Source: Endomicrobiales bacterium
Lineage (GTDB): Bacteria > Elusimicrobiota > Endomicrobiia > Endomicrobiales > JALOBY01
DNA length: 64,000 bases
Direction of reading: 5' to 3'
NCBI GenBank assembly: GCA_963796955.1
Contig: CAWCNJ010000008.1
Location: 320,001-384,000 of the forward strand
The notes beneath the pieces were generated by a model, which saw nothing but the letters and a program-made list of their open reading frames with translations, did not search any database and was not told the origin of the DNA. This document shows, piece after piece, positions 2 to 57,353 of the stretch (the first letter of the stretch is position 1; each line of letters opens with the position of its first letter). A program made the translations under genes and the position numbers.

Positions 2-3000
2 TGGCAGCCGGTAACGGCAGGTCCCGCGGGTCTTGCAGGTTATGAAATATATCTATCGACCGCCTCTGATTTTTCAGTATTTACGACCTCGGGCTTCACG
101 ACCAACACCAACATAAACCGCACACTGCCGAGCGCCGCCTACTACTGGCAGGTCTACGCGCGGGATAACGCCGGCCTGCGCTCGCCGTCGCTAACCTACA
201 CCGTTGTGATCGACACCATACCGCCCGTCATCGTTAACAACCAATCGGGCGACGACACATGGCGCAATAGCGGCGGCACCAGTTACAACGTCGATTTCTT
301 TGACAGCGGATCCGGGTTGAAGAATATTCAGTACGCGGTCTGGACGTCATCGGATCAAACCAGCGGCCAGCGCCTCGCATGGGCGGACATAGACGCTGTC
401 TCCGGGCAAGCCGCCTACACGCTTAATTGGCAGCTGAACTTTGCGGCGTTGGCGGAGAACGCGACGAACTATGTCTCGGTACGCGCGATCGACCAGCTGC
501 AGCAATACACCACCTACTGGAACGCCTTCTACGTTAAGAAGGACCAGACGATACCGACCGTCACCAACAACGAAGCCGGCGGTGACGCAACATGGCGGAT
601 GGACAACAGCCACGCCTATAACGTTACGTTCGCTGACGGCGGCGGATCGCTGCTCGGCAGCTTTGAGGTACGTATCACGACCGGTGCAAATGCAACGGGA
701 ACGCTGATACAGGATTGGACGGCTTTGCAAACCGGCATTAATGCGGCCAATTATTCTGCGCCCTGGCAGATACCTTCCGGCATATTCAACGCTATGCAAC
801 AGGGCCAAAACTACGTCAGCGTCCGTGTGACCGACACGGCGAGCAATTCAAGAACGATCACCGACGCATTCTATGTCTTGAAAGACACCACGCCGCCCAC
901 ATTTACCAACAACCAGGCCGGTGACACCATCTGGCGCAACAACAGCGCCGGGCTGTACGATGTTGATATGCATGATGTGGGCGCCGGTCTCAGCGGTTTC
1001 GAAGTGCGTGCTTCTTCGGTCACCGATGGCTCAGCCTATCTGACACCGTGGACCGTAGCGGTAACAAGCGCGACGGCGGATTATACAATGAACTGGCCAT
1101 TGCCTGCATTAGTGTGGAACGCGCTTACCACTTCGGTGACGGGATATATTTCGATACGTTCAAGCGATACCGCAGGCAACTACGCACTATTGAATAACGC
1201 TTTCTTCGTTTTGAAAGATACTGTTGTGCCCACGATCAGTAACAACCAGTCGGGGGACAACGTCTGGCGCCGCATCCCGGACGGCTCATACAACATGGAC
1301 TTTGCGGATCTTGGGGGAAGCAGGCTGCAGAAGTTCCAGATCCGTTCTTCAACGGTCGGCTATGGCGCGGTCCCCCTGACATTTGACTGGACGGACGGCG
1401 GCACGAACATTACAGGGTTGTCGGCCTTTTCGACTTTTTACATCCAGCAAACACAATTTGACCTGTTAGCGCCCGGCACGAACTATATTTCAGTAAGGGT
1501 GTATGACATCGCAGGCTCAACGGCTGAAGCGGTGAATGCGTTCTATGTTTTAAAAGACACTCAGGCGCCGACCGGCATCGCGACCGGACCCGCCTTCTAT
1601 AACACGCACACTGTGCCGGTGACCTTAAGCGCCTTTGACAACGGACCTTCCGGCATCAAGTATGTAAAACTTTTCTGGACAACCGATACTGGCTCGCCCT
1701 ATACCTGGAACCAGTTCGGCTCCACCTTTACGTCAATCCCCATTAATTTCACCGTCGCTGCTGACGGGACCTACGGCTTCAGGGTCGTCGCGTTTGACAA
1801 CGCCATGAACAGCGATGAAACCGACCCGCCGCCGGTTACTCTTGCGCCTGAAACCGGCACACTGGTCTCATCACAGGGGCCGACGATAGTAAAGAACGTA
1901 AGCGGCGACTCGACGTGGCGAAGCGCGAGCGGAACACTGTACAATATCGACTTCGTAGACCCTGTCTCACTGATAGACACGGCGCAGTATGTTGTCTGGA
2001 CCGGCCCCGCCAACACCGGCACGAAGGTAAAAGATTGGACGAACATAACCGCCTCAACCCGCGTTGCCTCCTATGTTCAGGATTGGCCGGTCGATTTTAC
2101 CGCGCTGATAAGCTCGGTCAACTACGTTTCCGTTCGGGCCTGGAATATGGCCGGCACTACCACAACAGTGGTTGATGCTTTCTACATCTTAAAAGACACC
2201 ACACCGCCATCCGTCTCGGGCCTGCCATCCGGCGACTCAAAATGGCGCAGCGCCCAGGTAAGTTACCCGCTTACCCTTGCGGATAACGGCTCGTTGCTAT
2301 CCAACGCTCAGTATGCCGTCTTCAGCCTGCCGGTGTTCGGCGGCAGCTCGATCATCCCCTGGACTGCATTCGCCTCCGGCATTTCGTCATCCTCCTACAG
2401 CACGCCGCTCAGCCTGGATTTCGCCTCACTGCCTCAGGCCGCCACGAACTATGTTTCGTTAAAGGTAACAGATATCGCCGGTAACATTACGATCGTTACA
2501 GACGCCTTCTATGTGTTAAAGGACACGACGCCTCCTTCAGTGGTCAACAACCAGGCAGGCGATAACACCTGGCGCAATACGTCCGGCACGCTCTACGATG
2601 TTGATTTCTTTGATAACGGCGGCTCAAAGATTGACACCCTGCAATACACCGTTTGGACGGCCACCGGCGGGGCAGGTATCCAGACCATACCCTGGACCGC
2701 AATAGCGCTGGGTGTAAATACCACCAGCTACACGAACAACTGGCCCGTTAATTTCAGCGCACTTGCCGACGGCACATCGAACTATGTATCCGTACGTGCC
2801 TGGGACACGGCCGGTTCAACATTTACCGCTTTGGATGTCTTCCACATCTACAAAGATGTCACAGGGCCATCGATCATAAATAACCAATCGGGAGACAATA
2901 CCTGGCGTTCCATCAGTAACGGTTTCTACGACGTGGACTTCCAGGACACCATCGACGGCGTTTCTTCGTTCCAGGTCCGGGTCTGGTCCGGGCCGGGACA

Positions 3001-5467
3001 GACGGGTGCCATGAACTCTGATTGGACGACGGTTGCTCAGAACATAAACAGCTTTGTGTATTCAGCCAACTGGCAACTGCCGTCCGCCGTTTTCAACGCA
3101 ATGGCAACCGGCAAGAACTATGTATCGCTGCGCGCCTTTGATAATTCTTCTAATGAATCCGATCTCATCGACGCTTTTTATGTGTATAAGGACACACTGG
3201 CGCCGACCATAACAGACAATCAGTCCGGCGATTTCACCTGGCGCAATTCAGGCGGTACACTATATAATGTAGACTTCAATGATCCGGACTCGCTGCTGTT
3301 ATCTGCTCAATACTCCGCCTGGAGCGCACCGGGACAAACCGGCACACAAAGCCTTGCCTGGAGCGATATAGCCTCCGGAATTTACGCCGGTACGTATAAT
3401 GCTGACTGGCCGGTGAATTTCGACCTGCTTTCAAGCGGCACGAACTACATCTCTGTACAGGTACGCGACAGCGCCGGGAATGTGACGGTCAGCACCAACG
3501 TTTTCGTTATTTATAAAGACACCGTTGTTCCGGCTGCTATAACAGACTTGGTCCTTTCCGGCGGGGCAGGAACACCTCAGGGGCAGATACGATTGACCTG
3601 GACAGCGCCGGGCGATGACGGAAAAACCGCCGGACCTGCCGTATCCTACGCGGTGCGCTTCGCCACGTTCACTATCAATAACGAAAATGATTACACTGCC
3701 GCGACTGTGTTCGCAAATTCCTGGCTGCCGGGGAACCCGAATGCCATTGAGAACACCCACTCTGTCACGGGCCTTGATACCACCAAAACATACGCGGTCA
3801 GCGTTCGCGCAATAGACAAAGCAGGCAGCCAGGGCTCCTTGTCGAATGCAGGGTCGCTGACAGCACCCGGGCCGGATACCACGCCGCCGGGAATAATTAC
3901 AAACCTTAGCGCAACAGCCGGCGGCTTTGGCGGCCAGATACGCCTTACTTGGACGGCGCCGGGTAATGACAACTATACCGGTACGGCCGCGTACTATACC
4001 TTGAAATGGTCGCTGACCCCGATACTGTCGATCTCAGACTGGAATGACCTGACGAACACGACAACATATATTCAATCCTGGGTGCCTCAGGCTGGCGGAG
4101 CAACGGAAGATGTGACACTCACAGATACGCAGTGCGGCGGATTCATGGCCGGCACAACCTACTACTTCGCGATCTGCGCTTTTGACGGTGTTAACAACAT
4201 CATTAACGTTTCAAACTCCGCAAGCAGCGCCCCGCAAAACACCGCGGCCAGAAGCGGCATGTACGCCTGGGGCATGGGTGCTAACGCGGCCCCGGACTAT
4301 CGGTTCTGGCAGCCGCCGGCCTGGGGCGCGACAAACGCGGGTGTTGCAGCCATAGCTACGATACGCTGGTCAAAACTCGTCTCGTGCCCACTGGTAAAGA
4401 ACGAGAAACTGCTTGGCCTGGAAACCTACGACGGTACTGGCGAACCGGCGGCTAATTTTTATTTACAACGCTGGGACGGCAGCACGAACCAGTGGTCCGG
4501 CACCGCGCCGTTCGGTAAACAAAACTCGGGCACCGGCAACCTATACTCAACCCGCCGATGCTTTGATATCGCGTATGAACAAAACTCGGGCCGCGCGCTT
4601 ATCGCCTGGTGGGATGCAACAGCAAGCCAGATCCGCTATGAGGTCTGGAGCTCAACCGCACAGGCGATGATCGGCGGTGGCACATTGAATATTCAATCCG
4701 GCGCTTCGGGAACCATTTACTTTATTCGGCTTGAACCACAACCTGAAACCGACCGTATCATGCTTGCGACACTTGACAGCAACTCACGCATTTTTGCCTC
4801 TGTATGGAACGGTCCATTAAATGGGAACACTGGCTGGGACACCACGGTCAGCACTAGAACAGTAACCACTACCGCTTCCGTTAATACCCGTCAGTGTTAT
4901 GATATCGCCTGGGAGGCAGATAGCGGACGGTGTATGGTCTTTTGGGGTCAAGGCACGGCGCTACAGTATGACCTGTGGTCATCAACAATGAGCGAGGCAT
5001 TCCCTACAAAGAACGCCTGGCTAACCCCGGCGGGAGGTAACACAGGGCCCACAGGCGCTTCCCTGCCGGCAACCTTTAACTGGCTAAAGCTTGCCGCCAA
5101 CCCGAATACTACGACCAGCCCCGATGATTCTCGCAATTATATCGCTATGACCAGCGCCGACGGCTCGAACGACTGGAACGTCGCGATCTGGAACGGATCC
5201 ACCTGGAGCGGCGTGCCCGCGGAAGATCCGACCATGGCATCCAGCGCGACAAGATGGACGGATCTTGCGTGGGAAAAAGACACGAACCGCTGCATGTTCG
5301 TAGCCGCCCACACCGCGAGCACCACGATGAGTTATCTGGCATACAGCCAGGCCCAGGGTTGGCATAACCCCGTTAACAATGCAGCCGCAACACCGTTGTC
5401 AGCGCCGAGAGACACCTATGCTTTCAGCGGCGCTATAGCCATTCTGAAAACTGGCCAGCGACCCTGA
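2..5467 (+). CDS. Giant repetitive surface protein, segment 1 (5' end outside window): FN3-like remnant, 9 Ig-like ~113-aa repeats, 2 FN3-like domains, Trp-rich propeller-like domain
   Basis: Frame +2 is open from base 2 (WQPVTAGPAGLAGYEIYLSTASDFSVF...YYWQVYARDNAG), so the ORF-track start at 206 is internal. Repeats DTxPPxxxNNQxGDxxWR...TNYISVRAxDxAG...FYVLK; FN3-type WTAPGDDG and WTAPGNDN motifs. The TGA at 5465 probably results from an indel at AAAA 5447-5450. Confidence 0.9.
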   Translation, partial: WQPVTAGPAGLAGYEIYLSTASDFSVFTTSGFTTNTNINRTLPSAAYYWQVYARDNAGLRSPSLTYTVVIDTIPPVIVNNQSGDDTWRNSGGTSYNVDFFDSGSGLKNIQYAVWTSSDQTSGQRLAWADIDAVSGQAAYTLNWQLNFAALAENATNYVSVRAIDQLQQYTTYWNAFYVKKDQTIPTVTNNEAGGDATWRMDNSHAYNVTFADGGGSLLGSFEVRITTGANATGTLIQDWTALQTGINAANYSAPWQIPSGIFNAMQQGQNYVSVRVTDTASNSRTITDAFYVLKDTTPPTFTNNQAGDTIWRNNSAGLYDVDMHDVGAGLSGFEVRASSVTDGSAYLTPWTVAVTSATADYTMNWPLPALVWNALTTSVTGYISIRSSDTAGNYALLNNAFFVLKDTVVPTISNNQSGDNVWRRIPDGSYNMDFADLGGSRLQKFQIRSSTVGYGAVPLTFDWTDGGTNITGLSAFSTFYIQQTQFDLLAPGTNYISVRVYDIAGSTAEAVNAFYVLKDTQAPTGIATGPAFYNTHTVPVTLSAFDNGPSGIKYVKLFWTTDTGSPYTWNQFGSTFTSIPINFTVAADGTYGFRVVAFDNAMNSDETDPPPVTLAPETGTLVSSQGPTIVKNVSGDSTWRSASGTLYNIDFVDPVSLIDTAQYVVWTGPANTGTKVKDWTNITASTRVASYVQDWPVDFTALISSVNYVSVRAWNMAGTTTTVVDAFYILKDTTPPSVSGLPSGDSKWRSAQVSYPLTLADNGSLLSNAQYAVFSLPVFGGSSIIPWTAFASGISSSSYSTPLSLDFASLPQAATNYVSLKVTDIAGNITIVTDAFYVLKDTTPPSVVNNQAGDNTWRNTSGTLYDVDFFDNGGSKIDTLQYTVWTATGGAGIQTIPWTAIALGVNTTSYTNNWPVNFSALADGTSNYVSVRAWDTAGSTFTALDVFHIYKDVTGPSIINNQSGDNTWRSISNGFYDVDFQDTIDGVSSFQVRVWSGPGQTGAMNSDWTTVAQNINSFVYSANWQLPSAVFNAMATGKNYVSLRAFDNSSNESDLIDAFYVYKDTLAPTITDNQSGDFTWRNSGGTLYNVDFNDPDSLLLSAQYSAWSAPGQTGTQSLAWSDIASGIYAGTYNADWPVNFDLLSSGTNYISVQVRDSAGNVTVSTNVFVIYKDTVVPAAITDLVLSGGAGTPQGQIRLTWTAPGDDGKTAGPAVSYAVRFATFTINNENDYTAATVFANSWLPGNPNAIENTHSVTGLDTTKTYAVSVRAIDKAGSQGSLSNAGSLTAPGPDTTPPGIITNLSATAGGFGGQIRLTWTAPGNDNYTGTAAYYTLKWSLTPILSISDWNDLTNTTTYIQSWVPQAGGATEDVTLTDTQCGGFMAGTTYYFAICAFDGVNNIINVSNSASSAPQNTAARSGMYAWGMGANAAPDYRFWQPPAWGATNAGVAAIATIRWSKLVSCPLVKNEKLLGLETYDGTGEPAANFYLQRWDGSTNQWSGTAPFGKQNSGTGNLYSTRRCFDIAYEQNSGRALIAWWDATASQIRYEVWSSTAQAMIGGGTLNIQSGASGTIYFIRLEPQPETDRIMLATLDSNSRIFASVWNGPLNGNTGWDTTVSTRTVTTTASVNTRQCYDIAWEADSGRCMVFWGQGTALQYDLWSSTMSEAFPTKNAWLTPAGGNTGPTGASLPATFNWLKLAANPNTTTSPDDSRNYIAMTSADGSNDWNVAIWNGSTWSGVPAEDPTMASSATRWTDLAWEKDTNRCMFVAAHTASTTMSYLAYSQAQGWHNPVNNAAATPLSAPRDTYAFSGAIAILKTGQRP

Positions 5468-8400
5468 TACCGACCGATTGGTGCTTACGGGCGCGGACGC
5501 GAACTCACAAGTGCATACACGCATCTGGGACGGGCGCAGTGGAGCACCGGCACCGTGCTTGAAACAACTTCCTCCGGCGGCGCCGCCTATGAATCTTTCG
5601 CCTATGATTTTGACAAACAGGATATTATACCGCCGACAATAACCGACCATCAGACTGGCGATAACAAATGGCTGGCAAGCAATACGCATACGTATAACGT
5701 CGATTTTGCCGATGCCGGCGATTCACATTTGAGCTATTATCAAATAAAGATCACGACAGGGCCCGCCCAGACAGGAGCGCTTATTCTCGACTGGACAACG
5801 CAGGCGAATCTCTACCCATCCGACAGTTACACTGCCGACTGGTCAATAGCTAACAGCACCTTCACGGCGATGAGGGAAGGGAAAAACTATGTTTCGGTGC
5901 GTGTCTATGACAACGCGAAGAACCTCGCCTCTCTGAGCGACGCATTCTACGTGCTGAAAGATACGACGCCACCAACGACAACCGTTCTTTTCTCACCGCC
6001 GGATACGACATTCACGAGCAACCAAAACATTACCTTCCAGTGGAACGGCGCGACGGATACGGCATCCGGCATACAAGGCTACGAATTCAATATTTCCACT
6101 GCGCAGAATTTCTCCGTGATCTATTCGTCATCGTATGTTACCGCGAGGGCGGACGCTCTTACGCTCCCATCGCAGGCATATTACTGGCGCGTGCGCGCCC
6201 AGGACAACGCCGACCAATTCGGCGCATTCTCATCCACCTTCTCGGTAACGGTAAGCACGGCCGGGCCTTCAATAATGAACAACCTGACGGGTGGCGATAC
6301 CACATGGCGCAACGCCCCTGTTACTTACAACGTCGATTTCAATGCCTCGCCTTCGAAGCTCGATACAGCGCAGTATACCGTCTGGAGCTCAACCGGACGC
6401 ACCGGGACTCAGCTGATAAATTGGACAACTATTTTTATCAATCTCGGCGCCGCATCATATACCACCGACTGGCCGGTCAATTTCAACCTGCTGCCGAACG
6501 GCACCAGCTATGTATCCGTGCGTGTGTGGGATACCGCCGGCAGCACCAGCTCACTGAATGACGCCTTCTTTATACGAAAGGATAACCAGCCGCCCTCGAT
6601 AGCCAACAATCAGGAAGGGGACCCTGTTTGGCGCGTTGCCGGCGGCACCAGCTACAATGTCGACTTCTTTGATATCGGAGGCTCGCTGCTGGATAAGGCC
6701 CAGTACGCGGTTTACCGTTCAACCGGCATGCAGGGCGCAGCCGTGATCGGGTGGACCGATATCGCCGCCTCGATCTCTTCAGCCGCGTATACCACTGATT
6801 GGCAGGTTAATTTCCCTGCACTGGCATCCGGAATAAACAACGTTTCAGTGCGGGGCATCGACGTTGCCGGCTCATCCACGACGGTTCAGGACGCATTCTA
6901 TATATTAAAGGACACCCAGGCGCCCACCGCCGTTAACAATATACCCGGCGGCCTCGCCTGGAAGGCGGCGAACACGGGCACCTATGACTTTGAGCTCGCC
7001 GATGCCGGTGGTTCTCTATTGGCCCATTTCGAGGTCAGCGCCTGCACAGCCGCCGCGCTGGGCTCGCCGTCATTGTCCGGATGGGTGCCGGTAGCCACCA
7101 ACATCTCGTCAGATTCATTCAAAACACCCTGGCCTCTGCCCCAGGCCGTGTGGGATACGCTTGCACAGACGACAACCAACTATATATCGGTCAGTGCAAC
7201 GGACCTGGCAGGCAACACCACGATATTCGTTGACGCCTTCCAGGTGCTTAAAGATACGATCGCGCCCGTGATAGTTAACAATCAGTCGGGCGATACAACC
7301 TGGCGCGGGAACAGCGGCACACAATACTCCGTCAACTTCTTCGACCTGGGCGGCGCCGGCCTTGACCATATCCAATACGCGGTGTGGGCTTCCAGCAGCC
7401 AGCAGGGTTCGCAAATAATACCGTGGACGGACATAGCGGCTTTGCCTGTCGGCGCGACCAGCTATACAACGCCGTGGCAGCTTAACTTCAGCCTGCTCGG
7501 CAGCGCCACGAATTTCGTTTCTGTTCGCGCCTTTGACCACGCGGGAACCGCCGCAATGCTTACCGACGCATTCTACGTGCTAAAGGATGCCCTGGCGCCG
7601 ACGATCAATAACAATCAGACGGGTGATACTGCCTGGCGCGCCGCCGGCGGCTCTACCTATAATGTTTATTTCAACGACGCGGGCGGTTCGCTGCTTTCAA
7701 CCTTCCAGGTCCGCATCGGCACCACACCGGCGCAGGCGGCGCCATACACGCTTGACTGGACAACGGTCATTTCGAACATGAACACACCGTCATACAGCAC
7801 CCCCTGGCAGCTGCCGGCAGGCGCATTCGATACGCTGCTCAGCGGCGTCACGAATTTCGTATCTGTGCGCACTTGGGATAATGCCGGCAGCACCACAACG
7901 CTTTCTGACGCCTTCTACATTCTAAAAGACACCATAGCGCCGTCCATAAGCATCAATGAGGTCCAGGACGACACCTGGTATGCCAATGATCCCGGAACAC
8001 TGCACGCCGTTTCATTTAGCGACCAGGGCGGCTCAAAGCTTAAGAACCTGCTCTACACGGCGCGCTCATCAACGGGCGGTATCGTCATAGACCTTACCGC
8101 GATCGCCTTGAGCGTGAACGCCACCGGCTATCAAACCCCCTGGAACGTAAATTTCAGCCGTATGGCGCCGGGCTATAACTACATTTCTCTTCAGGCCGAT
8201 GACCTGGCGGGGAATACGACGTATTACGCGAACGCTTTCTATGTGAAAAAAGATACCGCCGCTCCGTCGATAATCGTTGACCCGGCGCTTGCCAACGGTG
8301 ATCTGTCGTGGCAGAACAGCGGCGGCAAAGTTTATAACGTCGATTTCTTTGCGCAGGGAGTATCTAACCTTGACACGATACAATACGCCGTGTACGCCGC

Positions 8401-27067: not shown

Positions 27068-27075
27068 TAATGAAA

Positions 27076-27105
27076 ATTGTACCTAATTATTTCTAATTTT
27101 GCCAA
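27076..27105 (-). promoter_or_regulatory. Putative sigma70 promoter of the ABC operon (near-leaderless)
   Basis: Minus strand TTGGCA-N18-TACAAT, ending 8 nt before the ATG at 27067; no Shine-Dalgarno. Confidence 0.5.
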
Positions 27106-27142
27106 CTATTGTATGTCAGGAAGCAAAATTATGCGAAAAGCA

Positions 27143-27171
27143 TTGACTGTTCAATTTTATTTTATTAAACT
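27143..27171 (+). promoter_or_regulatory. Putative sigma70 promoter of the polysaccharide operon
   Basis: TTGACT-N17-TAAACT in an AT-rich divergent intergenic region; GAGGA RBS before ATG 27209. Confidence 0.6.
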
Positions 27172-27208
27172 TTGAATGTAAATTACTCATACTAAAAGTG
27201 AGGATGAG

Positions 27209-27640: not shown

Positions 27641-27641
27641 C

Positions 27642-36752: not shown

Positions 36753-36766
36753 TTTGCCAATTAACT

Positions 36767-38478: not shown

Positions 38479-38503
38479 GATCAGGCCGCAAGTCGGAGAA
38501 TCA

Positions 38504-41218: not shown

Positions 41219-41221
41219 TTG

Positions 41222-43892: not shown

Positions 43893-43904
43893 GGAGCTAA
43901 CGCA

Positions 43905-46810: not shown

Positions 46811-46834
46811 TGACCTTACAGGAGAGGATGACAA

Positions 46835-47671
46835 ATGGCTATTACAAATGACTTATTGCTTACCGAGCTGCTGCAGCAAAGGCTCGTGAAAATGAAATCA
46901 TTTTGTGTCGATAAAACCATAGCCAATTTCACACATCAATACGAGCTGCATAAACGTGTGAACAATCTTCTTAAGAGCGTCCAACAGTTGGTTGATACGC
47001 TTGGATCTTCTAAAAAGCTCAGGGTCCTTGACCTGGGGTGCGGTGACGGATTCAATTCCTTCAATCTTTATTACAATCTGAAGAATGCGAACATTGTAAT
47101 CGACGGCGTAGACTTTATAGAAATGGACATTTATATCGCGAACAAGACAAAAGAGTACTTACAGATCGACAACGACAAGATCGTTTTTTCAATAGGTGAC
47201 GCCTGTGATCTGAAATTGAGCCCAGAGCTTTTCGACATTGTAGTATTCAGCGAGGTTATCGAGCATCTGCCCGAACCTGAAAAGTCTATAAGAGAAATTT
47301 CAAAAGTCCTTAAAAAAGGCGGCTTTCTGGTATTAAGCACACCGAACGCGCACAACCCGGTCGTTGATGTGGCGCAAAAGCTCAAAGAGGTTCTCGGGAA
47401 AGTGGAACGCAAAAAAAGCGCGGTGGGATGGCAGGGAAAGTATCCCGGACATATTTCCACAATGAGCGTGGCGCAGCTGAAAGAACTGGTAACCAGGAAC
47501 GGCTTCAGGACCGTGAACCTTAAGCGCGGCAGTATTTTATACGGCTCGAACAACCTGGACCGGCACCCGGTAATTTCAGCGCTGATAATTATCTTCGACA
47601 GAATACTTGACCATTTACCGTTCACCCGTTCAATTACGGAAAACATCACGATGGTCCTGGCAAAAGAGTAA
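46835..47671 (+). CDS. Class I SAM-dependent methyltransferase
   Basis: VLDLGCGDG, GDA, FDIVVFSEVIEHL, LKKGG..VLSTPN; GGAG/AGGA RBS. Confidence 0.85.
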   Translation: MAITNDLLLTELLQQRLVKMKSFCVDKTIANFTHQYELHKRVNNLLKSVQQLVDTLGSSKKLRVLDLGCGDGFNSFNLYYNLKNANIVIDGVDFIEMDIYIANKTKEYLQIDNDKIVFSIGDACDLKLSPELFDIVVFSEVIEHLPEPEKSIREISKVLKKGGFLVLSTPNAHNPVVDVAQKLKEVLGKVERKKSAVGWQGKYPGHISTMSVAQLKELVTRNGFRTVNLKRGSILYGSNNLDRHPVISALIIIFDRILDHLPFTRSITENITMVLAKE

Positions 47672-47695
47672 CTGGAAAGGGAGAATAAGTAAACC

Positions 47696-50600
47696 ATGTG
47701 CGGAATTTGCGGATTTGCAGGCACACATAACCCGGAACTGCTTAGACGTATGGCCACGAGCATTTTCCATCGAGGTCCTGATGGCGAGGGGTTATTCGAG
47801 GATGGAGAACGGGTCGGTCTGGGTATGCGCCGCCTTGCCATCATTGATATTGCCGGCGGAAATCAACCGATATACAATGAGGATAAGACCTTAGCCGTTG
47901 TTTTTAACGGCGAGATATACAACTATAGGGAATTGCGCGACAGGCTGATCTCAAAAGGTCACAGGTTCTCAACGAATTCCGACACCGAGACGATCGTGCA
48001 CGCATACGAGGAATATGGCGACAGCTGTTCATCGCATTTTCGCGGTATGTTCGCTTTCGCCATATGGGACACCCGCAATAAAAGACTTTTTATCGGACGA
48101 GATCATTTCGGCATTAAACCTCTCTACTACGCAGAGCTGGGCGGTCAACTATATTTCGGTTCCGAGATCAAATGCCTTCTGCAGCACGCTCCGCTCAACA
48201 CCGGCATGGATTACAACGCCCTGGACAATTATTTTTCTCTCACCTACATTCCCGAACCTCTTTCGGCTTTTAAGGGGGTTCGCAAGCTTCCACCGGCGCA
48301 CAACCTGATCTGGCAAAACGGCAAGATTACCATTAAGAGCTACTGGTCTGTACCAGCATACAGCCCCGGCCCGCGTTTGAGCGACAAGGAACATGCCGCT
48401 GCCGTAACACAGATGTTGATAAATTCTCTGGCAGAACAAAAGGTGGCGGATGTTCCACTTGGCGTATTCCTTTCTGGGGGTCTGGACTCAAGCGCGATAG
48501 TGGCTTTTCTTTTCCAGCAACTGAAAATACCGGTCAAATCATTTTCGATCGGATATCAGTCGGCGGATATGTCCTACGACGAGACAGCAAAGGCGCGCCT
48601 GATCGCGCGTTACTTCGGTTGCGAGCATCATGAACATATCGTAAACCCCAATGCATGTGAAATACTCCCGCTGCTTGCGGCCCATTTCGACGAGCCTTTT
48701 GCAGATTCATCCGCGATCCCTACCTATTTAGTTTCACGGGAGGCCCGCAAGCATATTACCGTAGCCCTTACCGGCATCGGAGGCGACGAGATCTTTGCCG
48801 GCTACCCGCGCTACATGGGCGCCCAGTTATCGCAAGACTACGCCCGGTTGCCGCTCTTTCTACGGCGCGGCATAGCCTCTGCAAGTAGATTGGTACCGGA
48901 AACAAGAGCCAGCCGCAATATCGGCGGGTGGATCAGGCGTTTCGCTGCCGGCGGCACCATGCCATTTTCGCAGCGGTACGCATTTTGGGTTACGTTCCTG
49001 CACGAAAAAGATAAACAGGCTCTCTACACCCCACAATTTTCCGAACAATGCGCTGGCAACGACTACCTTTCATCCGCCTTTGTCAGTGGTCTTAACGACC
49101 CTGATGATCTTTTCAAGCACGATATCAATACTTATTTAAGCGACGATCTGCTGTGCCTTGCGGACCGCTCTTCCATGGCCGCCTCACTTGAACTGCGCGT
49201 TCCATTTCTCGATGTGCGTTTAGTGGAGTACATGAGCCGCATCTCACTCGCCGACAAAACGCACGGGAGGCGACTTAAGAACCTGCTTAAGATCGCGCTC
49301 TCTGATGTTTTACCGCAATCAATATTACAGCAAAAAAAACAGGGCTTTCAGATACCTATCGGACGCTGGATAAATACAGACCTTAAGGATATGGTTGACG
49401 ACCTGCTGAGCCCCGCCATGCTGGCTCGCGACGGTTTCTTTAATTCATCGGCTGTCATGAAAATGCTCTCAGACCACAGGAGCGGTTACCGCAACTTCAC
49501 GGACCAGATATATTCCCTTGTAATGTTTCAGCTTTGGCAGATAAACATGAAAAAGCTGTATGCATCGTCAGGCAGAACCTCGCCGGCAGAGACTTACACA
49601 TGCGCCACAAACAAAATATCACTTGACGCGCAGCTCAATACCAATCCGCGTAACAATATTCTGCTGATAAATATCGCCGGCATCGGCGACTTCCTCGAAT
49701 CGCAAAAAAGCATCGCCGCTATCCGTGAAAGTTACCCTTCTGCACATATAACGCTGTTGGTTTCCACAAAAGTTGCTGAGTATGCCGCAGCCTGTAAACT
49801 TGCCGATGAAATACGAGTATTCCCGGTAAGGCACGGACGTGGCCACGGCAGGCTTTTCAGCAGGGAGACGCTTAAGCTTATCAAGCTTATCGGCATCCTT
49901 AAAGAACGGCGCTATAACACTGCCATCAATTTTTCGGAGATCAGCACATGGGCCGGCGCGCTGCGTATGTACATACTGCTGCTGGTGCTTGGTATCAAGG
50001 AAACCTACGGCCGCAATACTAATGGGCGGGGTTTCTTCATGAAATACGCCATCCCCGATATGCCTGACGATAATCACGGTCAGCACTGGTACTTTGCAAA
50101 ACTGGTGGAGCTATTCACGGGCAGACAATCACTCAGAGAGCACAAAACGTGTATAACCGCTACAGACACAGGATCCGTTGGAACTTTTCTAAAAAGACAC
50201 AACGTTGATGCCTCAGCTCGACTGCTTATAATCAGCCCGGGTTCTGACCGGCTTACCAGGCGCTGGCAGGCCGATCGGTTCGCAAAAGCCGCAGATAGTA
50301 TTGCCGTCAAACATGACCTCACTACTATTATTGTCGGCAGTGCGAACGAACGGCAAACAGCCGAGGAGGTCCGCTCCGCCATGAAAACGACTTCGATCAA
50401 TGGGGCAGGTGAGTTTTCCATAAGCGGCACCCTTGCTTTAATAGCTGGCGCAAAATTAGTTATCTGCACTAACAGCGCACTCATGCACATGGCTGGCATA
50501 ATGTCCGTGCCATTCGTGGCGATAGCAGGCTCCGGCGACATACCGCGGGACACCCCGGACGGCGATGAAAACCATATGAGGCTGTTAAAAATACCCATAC

Positions 50601-50713
50601 CCTGCAGTCCCTGCTATAATTATAGCTGCCGGCGTCTTAAAACCAATGAGTGCATGCAAATGATAACTGTCGAGCAGGTAATTGCCGCATGCGAAGAGGT
50701 GCTTCGATCATGA
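47696..50713 (+). CDS. asnB: Asparagine synthase (glutamine-hydrolysing)-type amidotransferase fused to a C-terminal GT9 domain
   Basis: MCGICG Ntn start, HRGPD, RRLAIID, FNGEIYN, RDHFGIKPLYY, FLSGGLDSS, GIGGDE.FAGY, E.RVPFLD, KKQGF. From about residue 650: LLINIAGIGDF, SPGS....RRW, NSALMHMA (GT9). Confidence 0.85.
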   Translation: MCGICGFAGTHNPELLRRMATSIFHRGPDGEGLFEDGERVGLGMRRLAIIDIAGGNQPIYNEDKTLAVVFNGEIYNYRELRDRLISKGHRFSTNSDTETIVHAYEEYGDSCSSHFRGMFAFAIWDTRNKRLFIGRDHFGIKPLYYAELGGQLYFGSEIKCLLQHAPLNTGMDYNALDNYFSLTYIPEPLSAFKGVRKLPPAHNLIWQNGKITIKSYWSVPAYSPGPRLSDKEHAAAVTQMLINSLAEQKVADVPLGVFLSGGLDSSAIVAFLFQQLKIPVKSFSIGYQSADMSYDETAKARLIARYFGCEHHEHIVNPNACEILPLLAAHFDEPFADSSAIPTYLVSREARKHITVALTGIGGDEIFAGYPRYMGAQLSQDYARLPLFLRRGIASASRLVPETRASRNIGGWIRRFAAGGTMPFSQRYAFWVTFLHEKDKQALYTPQFSEQCAGNDYLSSAFVSGLNDPDDLFKHDINTYLSDDLLCLADRSSMAASLELRVPFLDVRLVEYMSRISLADKTHGRRLKNLLKIALSDVLPQSILQQKKQGFQIPIGRWINTDLKDMVDDLLSPAMLARDGFFNSSAVMKMLSDHRSGYRNFTDQIYSLVMFQLWQINMKKLYASSGRTSPAETYTCATNKISLDAQLNTNPRNNILLINIAGIGDFLESQKSIAAIRESYPSAHITLLVSTKVAEYAAACKLADEIRVFPVRHGRGHGRLFSRETLKLIKLIGILKERRYNTAINFSEISTWAGALRMYILLLVLGIKETYGRNTNGRGFFMKYAIPDMPDDNHGQHWYFAKLVELFTGRQSLREHKTCITATDTGSVGTFLKRHNVDASARLLIISPGSDRLTRRWQADRFAKAADSIAVKHDLTTIIVGSANERQTAEEVRSAMKTTSINGAGEFSISGTLALIAGAKLVICTNSALMHMAGIMSVPFVAIAGSGDIPRDTPDGDENHMRLLKIPIPCSPCYNYSCRRLKTNECMQMITVEQVIAACEEVLRS

Positions 50714-50737
50714 GAACTATTATCCAACGACTACCAC

Positions 50738-51592
50738 ATGAAAAATAAGGAGACTTTTATGACACCCTGCCCTTTTTGCGACTCAACTACTTCGAAAACG
50801 ATTGCTTTCTCCTGGGTGCGTTGTTGCGGTTGCGGACTTGGGTTTAACCCCACCGGCTACGTGCCAACCAACGTCGCAACATCCGATGAAGACAGACAAG
50901 TCGTCTGGCATGATTCAGTCGATAAAATTAATATCAACGGCCTCTCAAAAATAGAATCAGTATTGGGACACAAAGGCAAACTTTTGGACCTTGGCTGTGG
51001 TCATGGTAATTTCATGAAAATGGCGATTGAAAACGGATGGGAAGCGGAAGGCATAGAGGTTTCAGAGCCGGCCATCCGTCAGGCACGTGACGTGTTTAAG
51101 CTGAAGGTTTACGACAAACCGCTCGAGTTCCTTTCCATACCGGAAAAAACCTACGACGCCGTTACTCTATGGCGTGTTCTGGACCTGCTGCCTGAACCGA
51201 GAAAAGAACTTGAAAGGATCAACAAGATACTCAAGCCCGGCGGAGTTATCTGGCTGCGTATCAACAATTTTGATTTCCACTACCCTGCATTCCGTTTAGG
51301 ACAACTACCGTTGCTCAAGGGAAACGTTCACCCGGGCGTGGTTCACCGTTATGGAATTAATGCCCGTGCATTACGGACCGTACTTGCTAACACTGGATTT
51401 ACCGGCATAACTATTTTGAATTCAGAACTGAGCAGCGGAGACCCGTATTCTTCAGGCGGCAATTTCGGGACCGCCCTGGTAGTTGTAACAAAGAAATTTC
51501 TCTTTGCCTTCTGGCAATTGGCAGCAAAGCTTTCGGCCAACCGTATACTGTGGTCATCTTCATTAAAGTGCTGGGCGCGGAGACCTAAATGA
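50738..51592 (+). CDS. Class I SAM-dependent methyltransferase with N-terminal Cys motif
   Basis: CPFC...CCGCG; LLDLGCGHG; GIE.S; ILKPGG. Confidence 0.85.
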   Translation: MKNKETFMTPCPFCDSTTSKTIAFSWVRCCGCGLGFNPTGYVPTNVATSDEDRQVVWHDSVDKININGLSKIESVLGHKGKLLDLGCGHGNFMKMAIENGWEAEGIEVSEPAIRQARDVFKLKVYDKPLEFLSIPEKTYDAVTLWRVLDLLPEPRKELERINKILKPGGVIWLRINNFDFHYPAFRLGQLPLLKGNVHPGVVHRYGINARALRTVLANTGFTGITILNSELSSGDPYSSGGNFGTALVVVTKKFLFAFWQLAAKLSANRILWSSSLKCWARRPK

Positions 51593-52743: not shown

Positions 52744-54034
52744 TTTTTTTCACATTTCACTTTTTTCTTTGTTCACCGCTCTGATTATTTCTGTGGTGTC
52801 ACCCGGCGCAGGCGGTGCTACAAAAGAGTACATTGTTCTTTCCTGCGCCGTGCACATTCATTCAACTTTCAGCGGCAAAGAGTTCAGCCTGGAGAGAATT
52901 GTGAAGGATGCTCGTGCGGCCAATATAGACTCTCTCATATTTACCGACCACGACATTATGCGCTGGGAATACGGCATTTGGCCGCTTACGTCGCTGCTGA
53001 AGCGCACGATAGAGCGGCCTTCGGTCATCTCGGCGGGTCCCGAACGCTACCTGGGCGAAATTAAGAACCTACAGGAAAAGAACCCTGATATCATACTGAT
53101 CCCCGGCGTTGAATCCACCGCGTTCTATTACTGGACAGGCAGCCCGTTCGATAAAAGCCTTGTGCTTAACAGCTGGCACAAGCATATCCTCGTCCTGGGA
53201 ATGCCCGAGCCGGAACAATACCGGCTGCTACCGGTGGTTTCCAACTCTCACGCGAAAAACAATCCATTCGACCAATATCACGGCGACCAGGGGGACAAAC
53301 CATACCAGGCTCTGATAGATTATGCCAATGCTAATGACGCGCTTACCTACTGGGCTCATCCTGAAGCACCGAACTGGGAAAAACCTATTCAGATAGGACC
53401 TATCAAGATCGAGACGAAGCAATATGCTTCATCCCTGATGCACACAAAAGAATATACGGGCTTCGCTATTTTCGCTGAAGGTATGCGCAAAGCAGGCCAG
53501 CCTGGCAATGAGTGGGACAAAACACTTCAGGAATATTGCCGTGGCGCAAGGACACAACCCGTTTTTGTGATTGGCGAGCTGGACTACGGCGAAGATAAAT
53601 CGTACCGGCTTGATGAAATAACTAACATGATCTACGTTAAGGACAGATCCGCCAAAGATATCATCGCATCATTGAAGGGCGGGAAAAACTATGTACGATG
53701 GGCTCCGCATGGCGCGAAGTGGAACCTGGATATGCCTTCGTTTTTTACACAGTCCGGAGAGATCAAGGCGCTCTGTGGTGAAACAATACACGCCGCAGGC
53801 CGGCCGAAGATCTTTATAACACTCTCAGCATCCGACTTCAAACAGCACCCGGTAACGATACGCATTGTCCGTAATGGGAAACTTTACACTACGCTTGAAG
53901 GGTCAGCGCCGAACACAATAATATATGAAGACCCTGCCTCGCTGGATCAGAAATTGAGTTATTACCGCGTATTAATAGATGACCCCGCAGGCAACCGCAT
54001 TGCCACAAACCCCGTCTTCATTTCAAAAAACTAA
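52721..54034 (+). CDS. Exported/membrane-anchored PHP-like metallohydrolase with C-terminal Ig-like domain
   Basis: N-terminal hydrophobic segment; HIHS, FTDHD, PGVE, WAHP metal motifs; C-terminal YYRV...A.TNPVF. Confidence 0.7.
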   Translation: MTQRPYANFFHISLFSLFTALIISVVSPGAGGATKEYIVLSCAVHIHSTFSGKEFSLERIVKDARAANIDSLIFTDHDIMRWEYGIWPLTSLLKRTIERPSVISAGPERYLGEIKNLQEKNPDIILIPGVESTAFYYWTGSPFDKSLVLNSWHKHILVLGMPEPEQYRLLPVVSNSHAKNNPFDQYHGDQGDKPYQALIDYANANDALTYWAHPEAPNWEKPIQIGPIKIETKQYASSLMHTKEYTGFAIFAEGMRKAGQPGNEWDKTLQEYCRGARTQPVFVIGELDYGEDKSYRLDEITNMIYVKDRSAKDIIASLKGGKNYVRWAPHGAKWNLDMPSFFTQSGEIKALCGETIHAAGRPKIFITLSASDFKQHPVTIRIVRNGKLYTTLEGSAPNTIIYEDPASLDQKLSYYRVLIDDPAGNRIATNPVFISKN

Positions 54035-54053
54035 TGCGATTTTGTATGATTTT

Positions 54054-54062
54054 TGTTATACT
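54054..54062 (+). promoter_or_regulatory. Extended -10 promoter element (TGnTATACT), leaderless configuration
   Basis: TGTTATACT ends 6 nt before ATG 54069; no Shine-Dalgarno. Confidence 0.55.
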
Positions 54063-54068
54063 ATCAGT

Positions 54069-54755
54069 ATGATAGTAGCAGTACATCAACCTCAGTACCT
54101 TCCATGGCTTGGCTACTTCCACAAAATCGCTCGATGCGATCTCTTCATTTTTCTGGATGACGTGCAGTACAAAAAACGCGAGTTCCAGAACCGTAACAAA
54201 ATTAAAACACCGGGCGGGCCCCTGTGGCTTACCGTGCCGGTGCTTACCAAGGGCGCCTACTCTCAAAATATAATGGAAGTAAAAACGGACCCCACTGAAA
54301 CACACTGGGAAACCAGCCATTGGAAATCGATAGAACTTAATTATAGACACAGCCCCTTCTTTAACGAACATGCACAGTTCTTTTCCGACCTTTACACAAA
54401 AAAATGGGATTCTCTTATGAACATTTCCCTGGAGATCATCCGCTACACTTCAAACTATCTCGGCATAAAAACACCGGTCAGAATGTCCTCTGAATTCGCC
54501 GTAACCACCACCTCAACCCAACGCATTATAGACCTTTGCAAGGCAACGAAAGCAGATACCTATCTTTCCGGAGCGGGCGGCAGGGACTATATGGACACCG
54601 GCCTGTTCGCCGCCCAGGAACTAGGCCTGGAGTTCCAGCAGTTTACACACCCCGAATACGCTCAGCAGCACGGAAAATTCGAGCCGTATCTTTCAATAAT
54701 AGACCTGTTGTTCAACTGCGGGCCGGACAGCAGAAAACTACTACTGGGAAACTAA
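54069..54755 (+). CDS. wbqC: WbqC family protein (putative glycyltransferase)
   Basis: HQPQYLPWLGYF.KI...D.FIFLDDVQY....FQNRN.I, WLTVPV, YLSG.GG.DY, LSIIDLLFN.G; start reassigned to ATG 54069. Confidence 0.9.
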   Translation: MIVAVHQPQYLPWLGYFHKIARCDLFIFLDDVQYKKREFQNRNKIKTPGGPLWLTVPVLTKGAYSQNIMEVKTDPTETHWETSHWKSIELNYRHSPFFNEHAQFFSDLYTKKWDSLMNISLEIIRYTSNYLGIKTPVRMSSEFAVTTTSTQRIIDLCKATKADTYLSGAGGRDYMDTGLFAAQELGLEFQQFTHPEYAQQHGKFEPYLSIIDLLFNCGPDSRKLLLGN

Positions 54756-56204: not shown

Positions 56205-57353
56205 ATGATGATGAAAACGCCGGCCTGGCTGAAAGCCTATCTGATGCTGGTAGCGGTTGTTCTTCTGTTCCTGTTGCAGCCCTCGGGCGGCACGTGGGCA
56301 TGGCTGCACAATGTACGCTGGCTGTACGTATTCATAGTAGCCTTCCTTGTCACGCAGCTGCTGGTGCCTGTCTCCATAAAGATCGCCTGGCGCTTCGGGA
56401 TATTGGACAGACCCGGCGAAGCGCGCAAACTGCAGGACCATCCAATACCGCGTATCGGCGGCCTTGCTATATTCATCGCGATAATTATCGCCGTAGGAAG
56501 GAACTTATATTTCTCGCCCCAGCTGCAGGCTCTCATGATAGCCGGCTGCATGATATATATCGTCGGATTTTTTGACGATATACGTCCCTTAAGCGCAACA
56601 TTACGCCTCGCGATACAGTTGCTTGCCTGTTTCATAGTGGTCAACAGCGGTATACTGATCACCTCCGTCCCTGACTTTCCGGGGCACCATTACATACAGG
56701 CGCTGGTAACGGTTATCTGGCTGCTGGGCATGGCGAACGCAATAAATTTTCTAGACGGGATAGACGGTCTTGTTTCCAGCATGAGCGTGGTATGCGCCCT
56801 GTTGTTCTTTGTCATAGGCTGGCACACAAGACAAAGTTACCTTTCGTACCTGACTATCGCCATAGCGGGCGGCTGCGCGGGCTTTATACCCTATAACTGG
56901 CGGCCGGCGACCGTTTACCTGGGTGATGCGGGCGCCACTTTTCTCGGCTTCATGCTGGGCGGGGTAGCGGTGCTGGGTTCCTGGGGACATAATGACCCTA
57001 TAGTCGCTGTCTCCACCCCTTTACTGATCCTCGGTATACCGATCTTCGATATGATCTACACGACCGTGGCCCGCATCAATAATGGTTGTGTTAAAAATTT
57101 TAAACAGTGGCTGGAATACGCAGGCCGGGACCACTTTCACCACCGGCTGATGAACCTGGGGCTTAATGTTCCTCAATCCGTCTTCTTTATACTGCTACTG
57201 AATATATGCCTCGGCCTCGGCGCGATCGTGATGCGCGGCACGAACACAACGCACTGCGTTCTGCTGGGCGTGCAGGGCGTATTGGTATTTGTTATAATTG
57301 TTGTCCTGATGGTCCGCGGCGCCGAGACAGCGCGCGGTTCTGACGGAGAATAA
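56205..57353 (+). CDS. MraY/WecA-family undecaprenyl-phosphate sugar-1-phosphate transferase
   Basis: IPRIGGLAI, GFFDD, NAINFLDGIDGL, YNWRPA..YLGDAG, PIFD, DHFHHRL. Confidence 0.9.
   Translation: MMMKTPAWLKAYLMLVAVVLLFLLQPSGGTWAWLHNVRWLYVFIVAFLVTQLLVPVSIKIAWRFGILDRPGEARKLQDHPIPRIGGLAIFIAIIIAVGRNLYFSPQLQALMIAGCMIYIVGFFDDIRPLSATLRLAIQLLACFIVVNSGILITSVPDFPGHHYIQALVTVIWLLGMANAINFLDGIDGLVSSMSVVCALLFFVIGWHTRQSYLSYLTIAIAGGCAGFIPYNWRPATVYLGDAGATFLGFMLGGVAVLGSWGHNDPIVAVSTPLLILGIPIFDMIYTTVARINNGCVKNFKQWLEYAGRDHFHHRLMNLGLNVPQSVFFILLLNICLGLGAIVMRGTNTTHCVLLGVQGVLVFVIIVVLMVRGAETARGSDGE

Follow-up and report, generated by a model that had tools for sequence, protein, structure and literature searches.

Abstracts on the T9SS restrict it to Bacteroidota or to the FCB group and name PorU as its anchoring enzyme. 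The type A C-terminal domain (CTD) of its cargo is cut in P. gingivalis, and cargo that is left uncut and held by a barrel also has precedent (PMC9143113); substrates stall on the translocon when the motor is missing (PMC10994853). For peptides, PsmK and PsmN offer a precedent of phospho-glycosylation chemistry (PMC6993621). The available passages of PMC13552107 and PMC10288494 contain nothing on WbqC or on the peptide cassette described below. The locus considered here lies in a window of 64,000 nucleotides (C8:320001-384000) of a genome, G000 (81.46% complete), which belongs to Elusimicrobiota (Endomicrobiia) and is therefore, as a preliminary description of this DNA had supposed, outside Bacteroidota. 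It was compared with a survey of 151 sampled genomes of the phylum, 25 of which carry the propeller-CTD gene presented below and are hereafter called locus genomes; 21 of these 25 are at least 90% complete. No Rfam family matched in the window or in the 20 kb upstream.

The adhesin block and its export

The window opens inside a giant gene. Three + strand pieces, namely an Ig/Fn3-like repeat piece entering from upstream (2..5467), a middle piece (5555..13828) and a last piece (13692..20780) with Fn3 domains, lamin-tail domains and a C-terminal PQQ-type beta-propeller (19629-20777), belong to a single gene of about 12,300 codons, which starts at C8:303711, 16.3 kb ahead of the window, and is interrupted by at least four frameshift junctions in this genome. 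At its N-terminus, outside the window, an S26-like peptidase domain is accompanied by a signal-like helix. Intact frames of 8,832 and 10,468 aa are found in relatives, the propeller terminates all 14 giants read to their end, and Ser and Thr account for 17-23% of the giant pieces. The giant repeat protein of the preliminary description thus stands, as three pieces of one gene; its C-terminus is a propeller and carries no CTD.

The propeller-CTD protein, a proposed adaptor encoded 15 bp further on (20796..23339, +), comprises a signal peptide, a PQQ-type propeller (20856-22025), further beta domains and a type-A-like CTD (residues 763-839) that scores 38.8 bits with TIGR04183 (cut-off 23) and 38.6 with PF18962 (cut-off 27). 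After another 12 bp comes a PorV/PorQ-family barrel (23352..24872, +; NF033709, 154.3 bits, cut-off 90), which does not reach the equivalog models for PorV and PorQ though it passes NF033709; its C-terminal extension of about 190 aa is present in most orthologues. Both the tight + strand run of three genes and the CTD and PorV assignments, made at first from the letters, are thereby confirmed by the gaps and by profile scores above all three curated cut-offs. PorV-family genes number about 25 in the host genome, and many of them have a cargo gene of their own as partner; a same-strand PorV-family gene lies within 1.5 kb of 14 of the 17 CTD frames found in it. The T9SS-like export proposed earlier gains from a SprA-like pore of 1,820 aa encoded elsewhere on the same contig (TIGR04189, 157.7 bits, E 2.4e-46, below the cut-off of 200), which has an orthologue in 140 of the 151 genomes.

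Peptidase C25, the PorU family, was searched for in all genomes: it gave no match in the host genome, none in the 25 locus genomes and two in the 151 overall. The profile did ring in those two (G004 and G010), which have neither the CTD gene nor WbqC and whose C25 proteins, judged by sequence, look like ordinary secreted proteases. Exosortase was absent from the host genome while the controls rang, and was present in 4 of 151 genomes, two of them locus genomes that carry it on contigs other than that of the locus. No PEP-CTERM match (controls again ringing) and no C14 match was obtained in the host genome, nor any CD-clan protease in the 17 CTD frames scanned with Pfam; these searches for a sortase substitute turned up no more than two proteases, one of the M6 metalloprotease type in the vicinity of SprA and one of the PrsW family close to a different PorV gene. 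Of the ring components, PorK (GldK) had no match in the host genome and PorN (GldN) none in 151 genomes, where the search controls were likewise silent; of the motor, PorM (GldM) had a single partial match (E 0.008) in the 81%-complete host genome. Exosortase, PorU, PorK, PorM and PorN, remarked as not visible in the window, gave no clear match in the whole genome either, at its 81.46% completeness; an ordinary Bacteroidota with a canonical T9SS is ruled out by taxonomy together with the lack of C25 and PorK/M/N matches.

Complex prediction was applied to the propellers of the giant and of the adaptor. The pair scored 0.58, compared with 0.01 for the best control, a score in a range where, according to the tool, predictions are wrong more often than right unless the complex is likely a priori. 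At least 85% of the contacts agree between runs, and the pLDDT of the partners is at least 82. Of 157 solved pairs, 116 passed the mark used, as did 2 of 215 mismatched pairs; with a score of 0.60 or below, just 18 solved pairs and both mismatches passed it. The prediction weakly suggests that the giant's C-terminal propeller docks on that of the adaptor.

The glycan locus and its linkage to the adhesin block

The glycan operon, entirely on the + strand, is headed by a membrane-anchored hypothetical protein and a CBM48 protein (27209..28226). There follow Wza (28244-29974; PF02563 above cut-off), Wzc (29974-31866; TIGR01007 above cut-off), a conserved Wzy-like protein (31881-33269; PF04932 at 18.6, below 31.7), Wzx (33266-34807; PF13440 above cut-off), a glycosyl-/methyl-/acetyltransferase block (34744..51592) whose content differs among relatives, with an AsnB-GT9 fusion (47696-50713), a conserved GT4 (51589-52743), a PHP-like metallohydrolase with an N-terminal hydrophobic stretch (52721-54034), WbqC (53979..54755, likely start 54069; PF08889, 275.6 bits), an ExeA-like ATPase (54757-55557), a PIG-L/BshB-like deacetylase (55576-56202) and a WecA-like transferase (56205-57353; PF00953 above cut-off). 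The earlier assignments of Wza, Wzc, Wzx, WbqC, PIG-L, WecA-like and AsnB proteins are upheld by Pfam matches above cut-off, the Wzy call is weak and the ATPase remains under the cut-off of its best NCBIfam match (TIGR03015, 227, below 324.5). Since the giant and glycan blocks are parted by an NTP_transf_5 gene and, on the opposite strand, an ABC-2 pair, and a 141-bp AT-rich gap (27068-27208) separates the divergent units, the two blocks are probably separate transcription units.

Linkage of the blocks was examined in relatives. Wza, Wzc and Wzy are on the contig of the propeller-CTD gene in 13 of the 25 locus genomes; the propeller-CTD gene and WbqC share contig and strand, 23-41 kb apart, in eight genomes, and lie on opposite strands in one. 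In 7 of the 25, what comes after the CTD/PorV block is a different set of genes, and 5 more could not be decided. The linkage survives rearrangement in G055, where the order is WecA, peptide cassette, giant, in G070, where the cassette is directly ahead of Wza-Wzc-Wzy, and in G003. Over the 151 genomes, which these counts treat as independent though kin are not, the CTD gene and the Wzy-like gene are both present in 25, the CTD gene alone in 0, the Wzy-like gene alone in 7 and neither in 119 (25/0/6/31 when two large CTD-less families are left out); the corresponding numbers are 24, 1, 17 and 109 for the CTD gene and WbqC, and 24, 1, 8 and 118 for the cassette's precursor and the Wzy-like gene. 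The suspected association of the two blocks is therefore conserved, on one contig in 13 of 25 and with WbqC in 24 of 25, and synteny combined with co-occurrence rules out a chance neighbourhood. Co-occurrence can also stem from shared history and lifestyle.

The sole Pfam match of the Wzy-like protein is the ligase/polymerase family Wzy_C (PF04932), and it might act as an O-oligosaccharyltransferase, moving the lipid-linked glycan onto Ser/Thr of the giant, whose pieces are 17-23% Ser+Thr, or onto the terminal Ser of the peptide. Its presence in 25 of 25 CTD-gene genomes, and the 33-45% identity that its orthologues keep to the window protein while the glycosyltransferase sets vary, speak for this; a conserved backbone made by WecA and GT4 would, however, account for the same conservation. 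Moreover, the gene comes directly after Wza-Wzc, a polymerase is needed because no other polymerase-family match was found in the 38 proteins scanned of 108 unassigned, and the protein appears to lack the His-Asn loop motif typical of ligases. Transfer to the giant or the peptide is improbable.

WbqC is encoded two genes away from the PIG-L deacetylase. The closest fold to its model is BshC (Z 13.6, rmsd 3.3, 216 aligned); Foldseek returned nothing at E 0.001, its top entry being BshC at 0.035, and the WbqC profile found nothing among PDB sequences. The prediction for WbqC is thus an amide ligase of BshC-like, or class I synthetase-like, type; an amino-acylated sugar would be a fitting product, in agreement with the amino-acylating role near a deacetylase that had been assigned to it. 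PIG-L and WecA are not beside WbqC in 4 of the 24 genomes with both CTD gene and WbqC, in the stretches read.

The initial reading went further: the deacetylase would free an amine, WbqC would add Gly, AsnB would amidate, and CTD proteins would be attached covalently to this acceptor. Besides the linkage and co-occurrence of the blocks, it has in its favour that deacetylate-then-ligate chemistry is plausible, given the BshC-like WbqC and a PIG-L protein whose best NCBIfam match is BshB1 (96 of 182.5 bits), that linking sugars vary among Bacteroidota, so that other routes exist (PMC11969387), and that the host genome is incomplete. Covalent joining requires a PorU-type transpeptidase, however, and is unsupported since C25 is absent from the 25 locus genomes; the exosortase, C14, PEP-CTERM and CD-clan results, together with a giant devoid of CTD, likewise stand against it. 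AsnB occurs in just 2 of 9 fully read loci and is not core to the locus, which deprives the amidation step of support, and the window has no NDP-sugar dehydrogenase or DegT gene, such as the Wbp enzymes for a diamino-uronic linker sugar would include (three NDP-sugar dehydrogenases and three full-length DegT genes are found outside it in the host genome). Finally, five genomes pair WbqC with a distant PIG-L in loci unrelated to this one, and amino acids in amide linkage are a usual decoration of O-antigens (PMC7685785). Covalent anchoring of CTD proteins is accordingly judged improbable.

A peptide cassette around the giant gene

The giant operon is bracketed by a peptide cassette that had no part in the initial reading, composed of an HprK-like kinase, PqqD, a radical SAM enzyme, an S26 peptidase, a nucleotidyltransferase, an ABC-2 pair and a precursor. 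Upstream of the giant and outside the window are an HD-GYP-like gene (C8:300097-301296), the kinase (C8:301245-302105, recognised by motifs and weak profile matches), PqqD (RRE; C8:301988-302368), the radical SAM/SPASM enzyme (C8:302364-303404) and a 49-aa precursor (C8:303571-303720). Within the window, the NTP_transf_5 nucleotidyltransferase-fold protein (24865..25755, +; PF14907, 80.5 bits) has an intact DxD with D56 and D58 invariant, its profile finding nothing among PDB sequences, and an ABC-2 permease (25663-26445) and ATPase (26438-27067) occupy a conserved position on the - strand (25663..27067). The S26 domain, whose S24/S26 profile match is weak, has Ser or Cys as nucleophile and keeps its His; it is fused to the giant in five genomes including the host, and in G037 to another FlgD-Ig-tailed protein. 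Ser is the terminal residue of 22 of 22 genome cores and of 63 of 63 distinct metagenome cores, the latter retrieved by a pattern that leaves the peptide end unspecified.

Equivalog profiles of described cassettes were not reached, be it SynChlorMet (ScmC 23/125, ScmD 17/100, ScmE 113/400) or the HPr-rel-A and ACGX cassettes (TIGR04352 19/200, TIGR04353 31.5/35, TIGR04340 85/400). AsnB was rejected as a lasso cyclase (214 of 525 on the cyclase model, and not core). The joint presence of PqqD, radical SAM and PQQ-type propellers could point to a propeller cofactor like PQQ or mycofactocin, but this is given a low probability, as no NCBIfam dehydrogenase model was at cut-off.

In 34 metagenome precursor loci of at least 8 kb, a giant was met within 10 kb in 15 and a glycan-core gene in only 4. 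The precursor family extends far beyond this locus, with 485 clusters at 50% identity. Such breadth, the probably separate transcription units and the linkage broken in 7 of 25 genomes would suit an inherited island for biofilm formation, its common control probably running through c-di-GMP and the HD-GYP-like gene, whose three products act in parallel and unlinked, the peptide being a signal or antimicrobial. Against this stand the splitting of the cassette around the giant operon, the fusion of the peptidase to secreted cargo in two differing arrangements and the survival of linkage through rearrangement; an island of parallel products is rather unlikely.

A proposed coat and its relation to known systems

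What has been observed is which genes are present, how they are ordered and how they co-occur, which profiles they match, and that nothing matches a known sortase. I favour, with moderate confidence, one adhesive coat system made of a non-covalently held giant adhesin, a Wzx/Wzy capsule-type glycan and a cross-linked, phospho-glycosylated, Ser-ended peptide; the three may interact physically. The propeller-CTD protein would exit through the SprA-like pore, its uncut CTD staying on the adjoining PorV barrel like type B cargo on PorP/SprF, and the C-terminal propeller of the CTD-less giant would dock on its N-terminal propeller. WecA, the conserved GT4, Wzx, Wzy, Wzc and Wza would make and export the polymer, WbqC putting an amino acid on the amine of a sugar, whether PIG-L freed that amine or a DegT aminotransferase made it. 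PqqD would bind the leader while the radical SAM enzyme cross-links the cysteines of the peptide; the kinase would phosphorylate the terminal Ser, the nucleotidyltransferase-fold enzyme would then sugar that phosphate, S26 would cleave the precursor after A-L-A and the ABC-2 pair would export the core. Against this coat count the type A score of the CTD, which does not favour the uncut reading, the lack of a clear motor match, the linkage broken in 7 of 25 genomes, the scarcity of glycan-core genes near metagenome precursors, the low range of the propeller-complex score, the incompleteness of the host genome and the frameshifts of its giant.

Should peptide and glycan be covalently bonded at all, the phosphoserine of the peptide, rather than the CTD, is the best candidate. 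A rather unlikely extension makes the peptide a ribosomal linker, joined to the capsule glycan by its last-Ser phosphate (or by its carboxyl via WbqC) and to the giant or adaptor by its cross-linked core. If true, a RiPP would do the work of the PorU sortase and tie a motor-less T9SS-like adhesin to the polysaccharide of the cell, a structural envelope role for a RiPP.

A distant phylum thus employs SprA/PorV/CTD parts without a recognisable sortase, tied to a capsule locus and an uncharacterised peptide cassette. Testable questions follow on the export and holding of a CTD-less protein of some 10,000 residues, on the role of WbqC, for which the BshC-like fold points to a direct assay, and on that of a widespread Ser-terminal radical-SAM peptide; the small cassette enzymes could be reconstituted in E. 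coli without culture of the host.

With the T9SS attachment pathway of Bacteroidota, which works with SprA/Sov, PorV, the PorU sortase and a Wbp/Vim linker sugar, the locus shares the SprA-like pore, PorV-family barrels, type-A-like CTD cargo and nearby amino-acylated surface-sugar chemistry. It differs in its Elusimicrobiota host, the sub-cut-off pore, the abundance of PorV-family genes, the lack of PorU/C25, PorK, PorM and PorN matches and a giant without CTD. BshA, BshB and BshC are the enzymes of the bacillithiol pathway, and a GT4, a PIG-L-family deacetylase and a BshC-like fold also come together here, but in a lipid-linked glycan operon beside WecA and with a WbqC of 228 aa that is 12% identical to the 540-residue BshC chain. 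A group 1-type Wzx/Wzy capsule has in common Wza, Wzc, Wzx and the initiating transferase, with profiles above cut-off. Type B CTD/PorP-SprF pairs (PG1035-PorP, SprB-SprF; PMC9143113, PMC12618676) share a barrel gene adjoining each cargo gene and, likely, an uncut CTD and non-covalent retention; the tail here scores as type A, the barrel as PorV/PorQ family, and the adhesin, having no such tail of its own, would be suspended from an adaptor. The PEP-CTERM/exosortase A exopolysaccharide locus of floc formers (PMC1569441, PMC9850573) likewise combines surface proteins with Wza/Wzc, an ExeA-like ATPase, AsnB and a deacetylase, but the host genome has neither exosortase nor PEP-CTERM, export is T9SS-like, and the scores on XrtA-system models (ATPase TIGR03015 as above, amidotransferase TIGR03108 557/816.9, export protein TIGR03027 161.5/180), all under cut-off, indicate relatives and not members. 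The paeninodin (PadeK) and pseudomycoidin (PsmK/PsmN) lasso peptides (PMC6993621) share with the cassette an RRE, an HprK-like kinase, a nucleotidyltransferase-fold enzyme, an ABC exporter, a Y-x-x-P leader and an invariant C-terminal Ser; in place of a lasso cyclase and B2 protease, the cassette has a radical SAM/SPASM enzyme, three Cys and an S26 peptidase, and it is linked with the genes of a giant adhesin and of a capsule.

Conservation of the adhesin and glycan operons

Re-reading of the window, together with profile matches, recovered at its position every gene named in the preliminary description. In the propeller-CTD protein (20796-23339; 847 aa), a signal-peptide-like start is followed by a PQQ-type propeller and by a type IX secretion-style C-terminal domain (CTD) that scores 38.8 bits with TIGR04183 (cut-off 23) and 38.6 with PF18962 (cut-off 27). 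The product of the following gene, which carries an extension of about 190 aa, scores 154.3 with the PorV/PorQ family model (cut-off 90). The giant repeat gene starts outside the window, at position 303711 of the contig (C8:303711), and spans about 12,300 codons with at least four frameshift junctions; these are likely assembly errors, since relatives carry unbroken frames of 8,832 and 10,468 aa. Each of the 14 giants whose end was read (that of the window and 13 others) terminates in a propeller rather than a CTD. Between this operon and the glycan operon are found an NTP_transf_5 gene, an ABC-2 pair on the opposite strand and an AT-rich gap in which either strand carries promoter-like sites. 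Across window 27000-48000, the GC content of about 56% seen in the giant operon gives way to 46-50% for the glycan block, a drop consistent with exchange of variable glycan genes.

Among 151 sampled Elusimicrobiota genomes, orthologues of the propeller-CTD protein (hereafter the CTD gene) were found in 25, of WbqC in 41, of the ExeA-like ATPase in 28 and of the Wzy-like protein in 32. Every one of the 25 genomes with the CTD gene also carries the Wzy-like gene; WbqC is present in 24 of them and the ATPase in 21. When two large families (89 genomes, all lacking the CTD gene) are left out, both the CTD and Wzy-like genes occur in 25 genomes, the CTD gene alone in none, the Wzy-like gene alone in 6 and neither in 31; kin are not independent, so these counts are patterns and not probabilities. 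Within the three mixed families, f17 (CTD gene in 2 and Wzy-like gene in 3 of 10 genomes), f22 (4 and 4 of 7) and f25 (1 and 1 of 3), the two genes are mostly present or missing together.

The usual gene order is HD-GYP-like, kinase, PqqD, radical SAM, precursor, S26, giant, propeller-CTD, PorV, NTP_transf_5 and ABC-2 pair, followed by CBM48, Wza, Wzc, Wzy-like, a variable block, GT4, PHP-like, WbqC, ATPase, PIG-L and WecA. In the loci read from the 25 genomes, Wza/Wzc/Wzy lie on the same contig in 13 and unrelated genes follow the PorV block in 7, the remaining 5 being counted neither as linked nor as broken. In 8 genomes the CTD gene and WbqC are found on one strand of one contig, separated by 23-41 kb; in 1 they are on opposite strands. 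The preliminary description gave lack of conserved linkage or co-occurrence of the two blocks in relatives as grounds for refutation; synteny and co-occurrence show the linkage to be conserved and real.

A 1.4-Mb relative from the host's own family (G047; 99% complete) has a SprA-like gene and gave no match for the CTD gene, radical SAM enzyme, precursor, Wzy-like protein, ATPase or WbqC, the whole set being missing together. Downstream of the glycan operon, window 57391-64000 is a housekeeping run (PIN-PhoH, PHP phosphatase, nadC, birA, rex, rnfC and a putative rnfD start), and PhoH-PHP also follows wecA in several relatives. In genome G063 (L024:15444-16211), wecA is followed by a gene of about 250 aa that matches PF13557 (MetA-pathway family), and two other genomes have similar genes behind wecA; none follows wecA in the window.

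A peptide cassette around the giant operon

Directly upstream of the giant gene, outside the window and hence out of sight of the preliminary description, lie an HD-GYP-like gene (C8:300097-301296) and genes for an HprK-like kinase (C8:301245-302105), PqqD (C8:301988-302368), a radical SAM/SPASM enzyme (C8:302364-303404) and a 49-aa precursor (C8:303571-303720). The window's NTP_transf_5 and ABC-2 genes complete this cassette, whose proteins reach none of the existing cassette models. The precursor is present in 22 of 26 radical SAM loci and, by profile, in 25 of the 151 genomes; the Wzy-like gene accompanies it in 24 of these and the CTD gene in 21. A Tyr and a Pro in the leader, three Cys and the last Ser are invariant. 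In metagenomes, 341 stretches matched a pattern that did not include the end, and 80 were kept; all 63 distinct cores among them end in Ser, and 60 have their last Cys 7 residues from the end. The family comprises 485 clusters at 50% identity, and 143 of the best 150 are Ser-terminal, the profile used there including the Ser.

In the 22 precursors the first Cys directly follows Ala, Gly or Ser, and another Ala stands two places before that residue, in agreement with the signal-peptidase rule. The nucleophile of the S26 peptidase is Ser or Cys (a conserved Cys in eight genomes) and the His is kept. The host and four other genomes have S26 fused to the giant; in one further genome its fusion partner is another protein, with a FlgD-Ig tail. 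The window's ExeA-like ATPase is highly conserved; a second such ATPase, 35-51% identical to it in genome loci and often between S26 and the giant, lies in or beside the cassette in five genome and four metagenome loci. In pseudomycoidin, according to PMC6993621, the C-terminal Ser is phosphorylated by an HprK-family kinase and hexose addition requires an NTP-transferase-family protein. The cassette would make a cross-linked, likely phospho-glycosylated peptide.

Export machinery and proposed docking of the giant

The non-Bacteroidota host surmised earlier is upheld: the named loci recovered by searching with the ATPase, three in number and 71-76% identical, belong to Elusimicrobia/Endomicrobiia genomes. 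The host genome (2.10 Mb, 81.46% complete) encodes a SprA-like protein of 1,820 aa (C8:81443-86905; TIGR04189 157.7 bits, cut-off 200), 29 PorV-family matches counted as 25 genes, 8 TIGR04183 matches and 17 CTD frames by a local profile, 14 of which have a same-strand PorV-family gene within 1.5 kb. Profile searches of this 81.46% complete genome gave no match for exosortase, GldK, PEP-CTERM or C14 and, for GldM, no more than a fragment (E 0.008); nor was there a match for C25 or GldN, for which the positive controls were silent as well. Across the 151 genomes, the SprA-like gene is present in 140, C25 in 2 and exosortase in 4. T9SS substrates are reported to stall when the motor is absent (PMC10994853).

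In the stretch C8:76115-86905, a PorV-like barrel and a CTD-bearing M6 metalloprotease directly precede two putative LptF/G-like genes, so labelled by eye from sequence, and the SprA-like gene. The host has 26 open frames above 1,700 aa, many within frameshifted runs, and an 8,846-aa frame on contig C6 ends in a CTD-like tail ahead of a PorV gene. A second Wza/Wzc locus (C11:68001-83000) contains two PorV-family genes, either side of an NDP-sugar dehydrogenase, with a third such PorV-family gene a few kb upstream.

Type B cargo keeps its CTD uncut and is held on the barrel (PMC9143113; PMC12618676). By analogy, the propeller-CTD protein may act as an adaptor, remaining with its CTD uncut on the PorV barrel dedicated to it, and the giant would dock on this adaptor propeller to propeller. 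Complex prediction weakly suggests such docking (0.58 versus 0.01 for the best control; contact agreement at least 85%, partner pLDDT at least 82). Among solved pairs, 116 of 157 attained the prediction mark, against 2 of 215 among mismatches; marks at 0.60 or under comprise only 18 solved pairs but both mismatches.

Proposed sugar chemistry and relation to known systems

The polymer made by the glycan operon would be of the capsule type and contain an amino-acylated sugar. The fold nearest to the WbqC model (pLDDT 94) is BshC (Z 13.6, rmsd 3.3, 216 aligned), followed by class I lysyl-tRNA synthetase (Z 10.6, rmsd 3.0, 172 aligned), and the best NCBIfam match of the PIG-L deacetylase, under cut-off, is BshB1. 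Because of these two resemblances, the deacetylation and subsequent amino-acid ligation proposed in the preliminary description are plausible, with glycine a putative choice for the added residue. WbqC is termed a putative glycine transferase in PMC7253198.

The further proposal, that the sugar serves as a protein acceptor, fared less well. A DegT aminotransferase lies next to WbqC or two genes away in 7 loci scanned, PIG-L and WecA are absent beside WbqC in the stretches read from four f22 genomes, 5 genomes carry WbqC in unrelated loci together with distant PIG-L genes, and amide-linked amino acids are described as common O-antigen decorations (PMC7685785), all of which argue against it. So does the distribution of AsnB, assigned to the same chemistry, which is present in only 2 of 9 fully read loci, with 7 further, partly read loci of this type carrying it. 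In the window AsnB is fused to a GT9 domain (47696-50713), and AsnB frames of like length (938-1,027 aa) occur in five other genomes. The joining step in Bacteroidota is ascribed to PorU (PMC11969387). PorU/C25 was found in none of the 25 genomes with the CTD gene, and covalent joining of the CTD to the glycan is unsupported; exosortase was found in 2 of the 25, each time on another contig.

Among the matches listed for Elusimicrobiota and for the cassette literature, no publication dealt with the combination of T9SS-like adhesin, glycan locus and cassette; supplements of RiPP-mining papers may list the cassette. As far as the searches reach, this linked system, which is real and conserved, is undescribed as a whole, and each of its parts is a version of a known kind.
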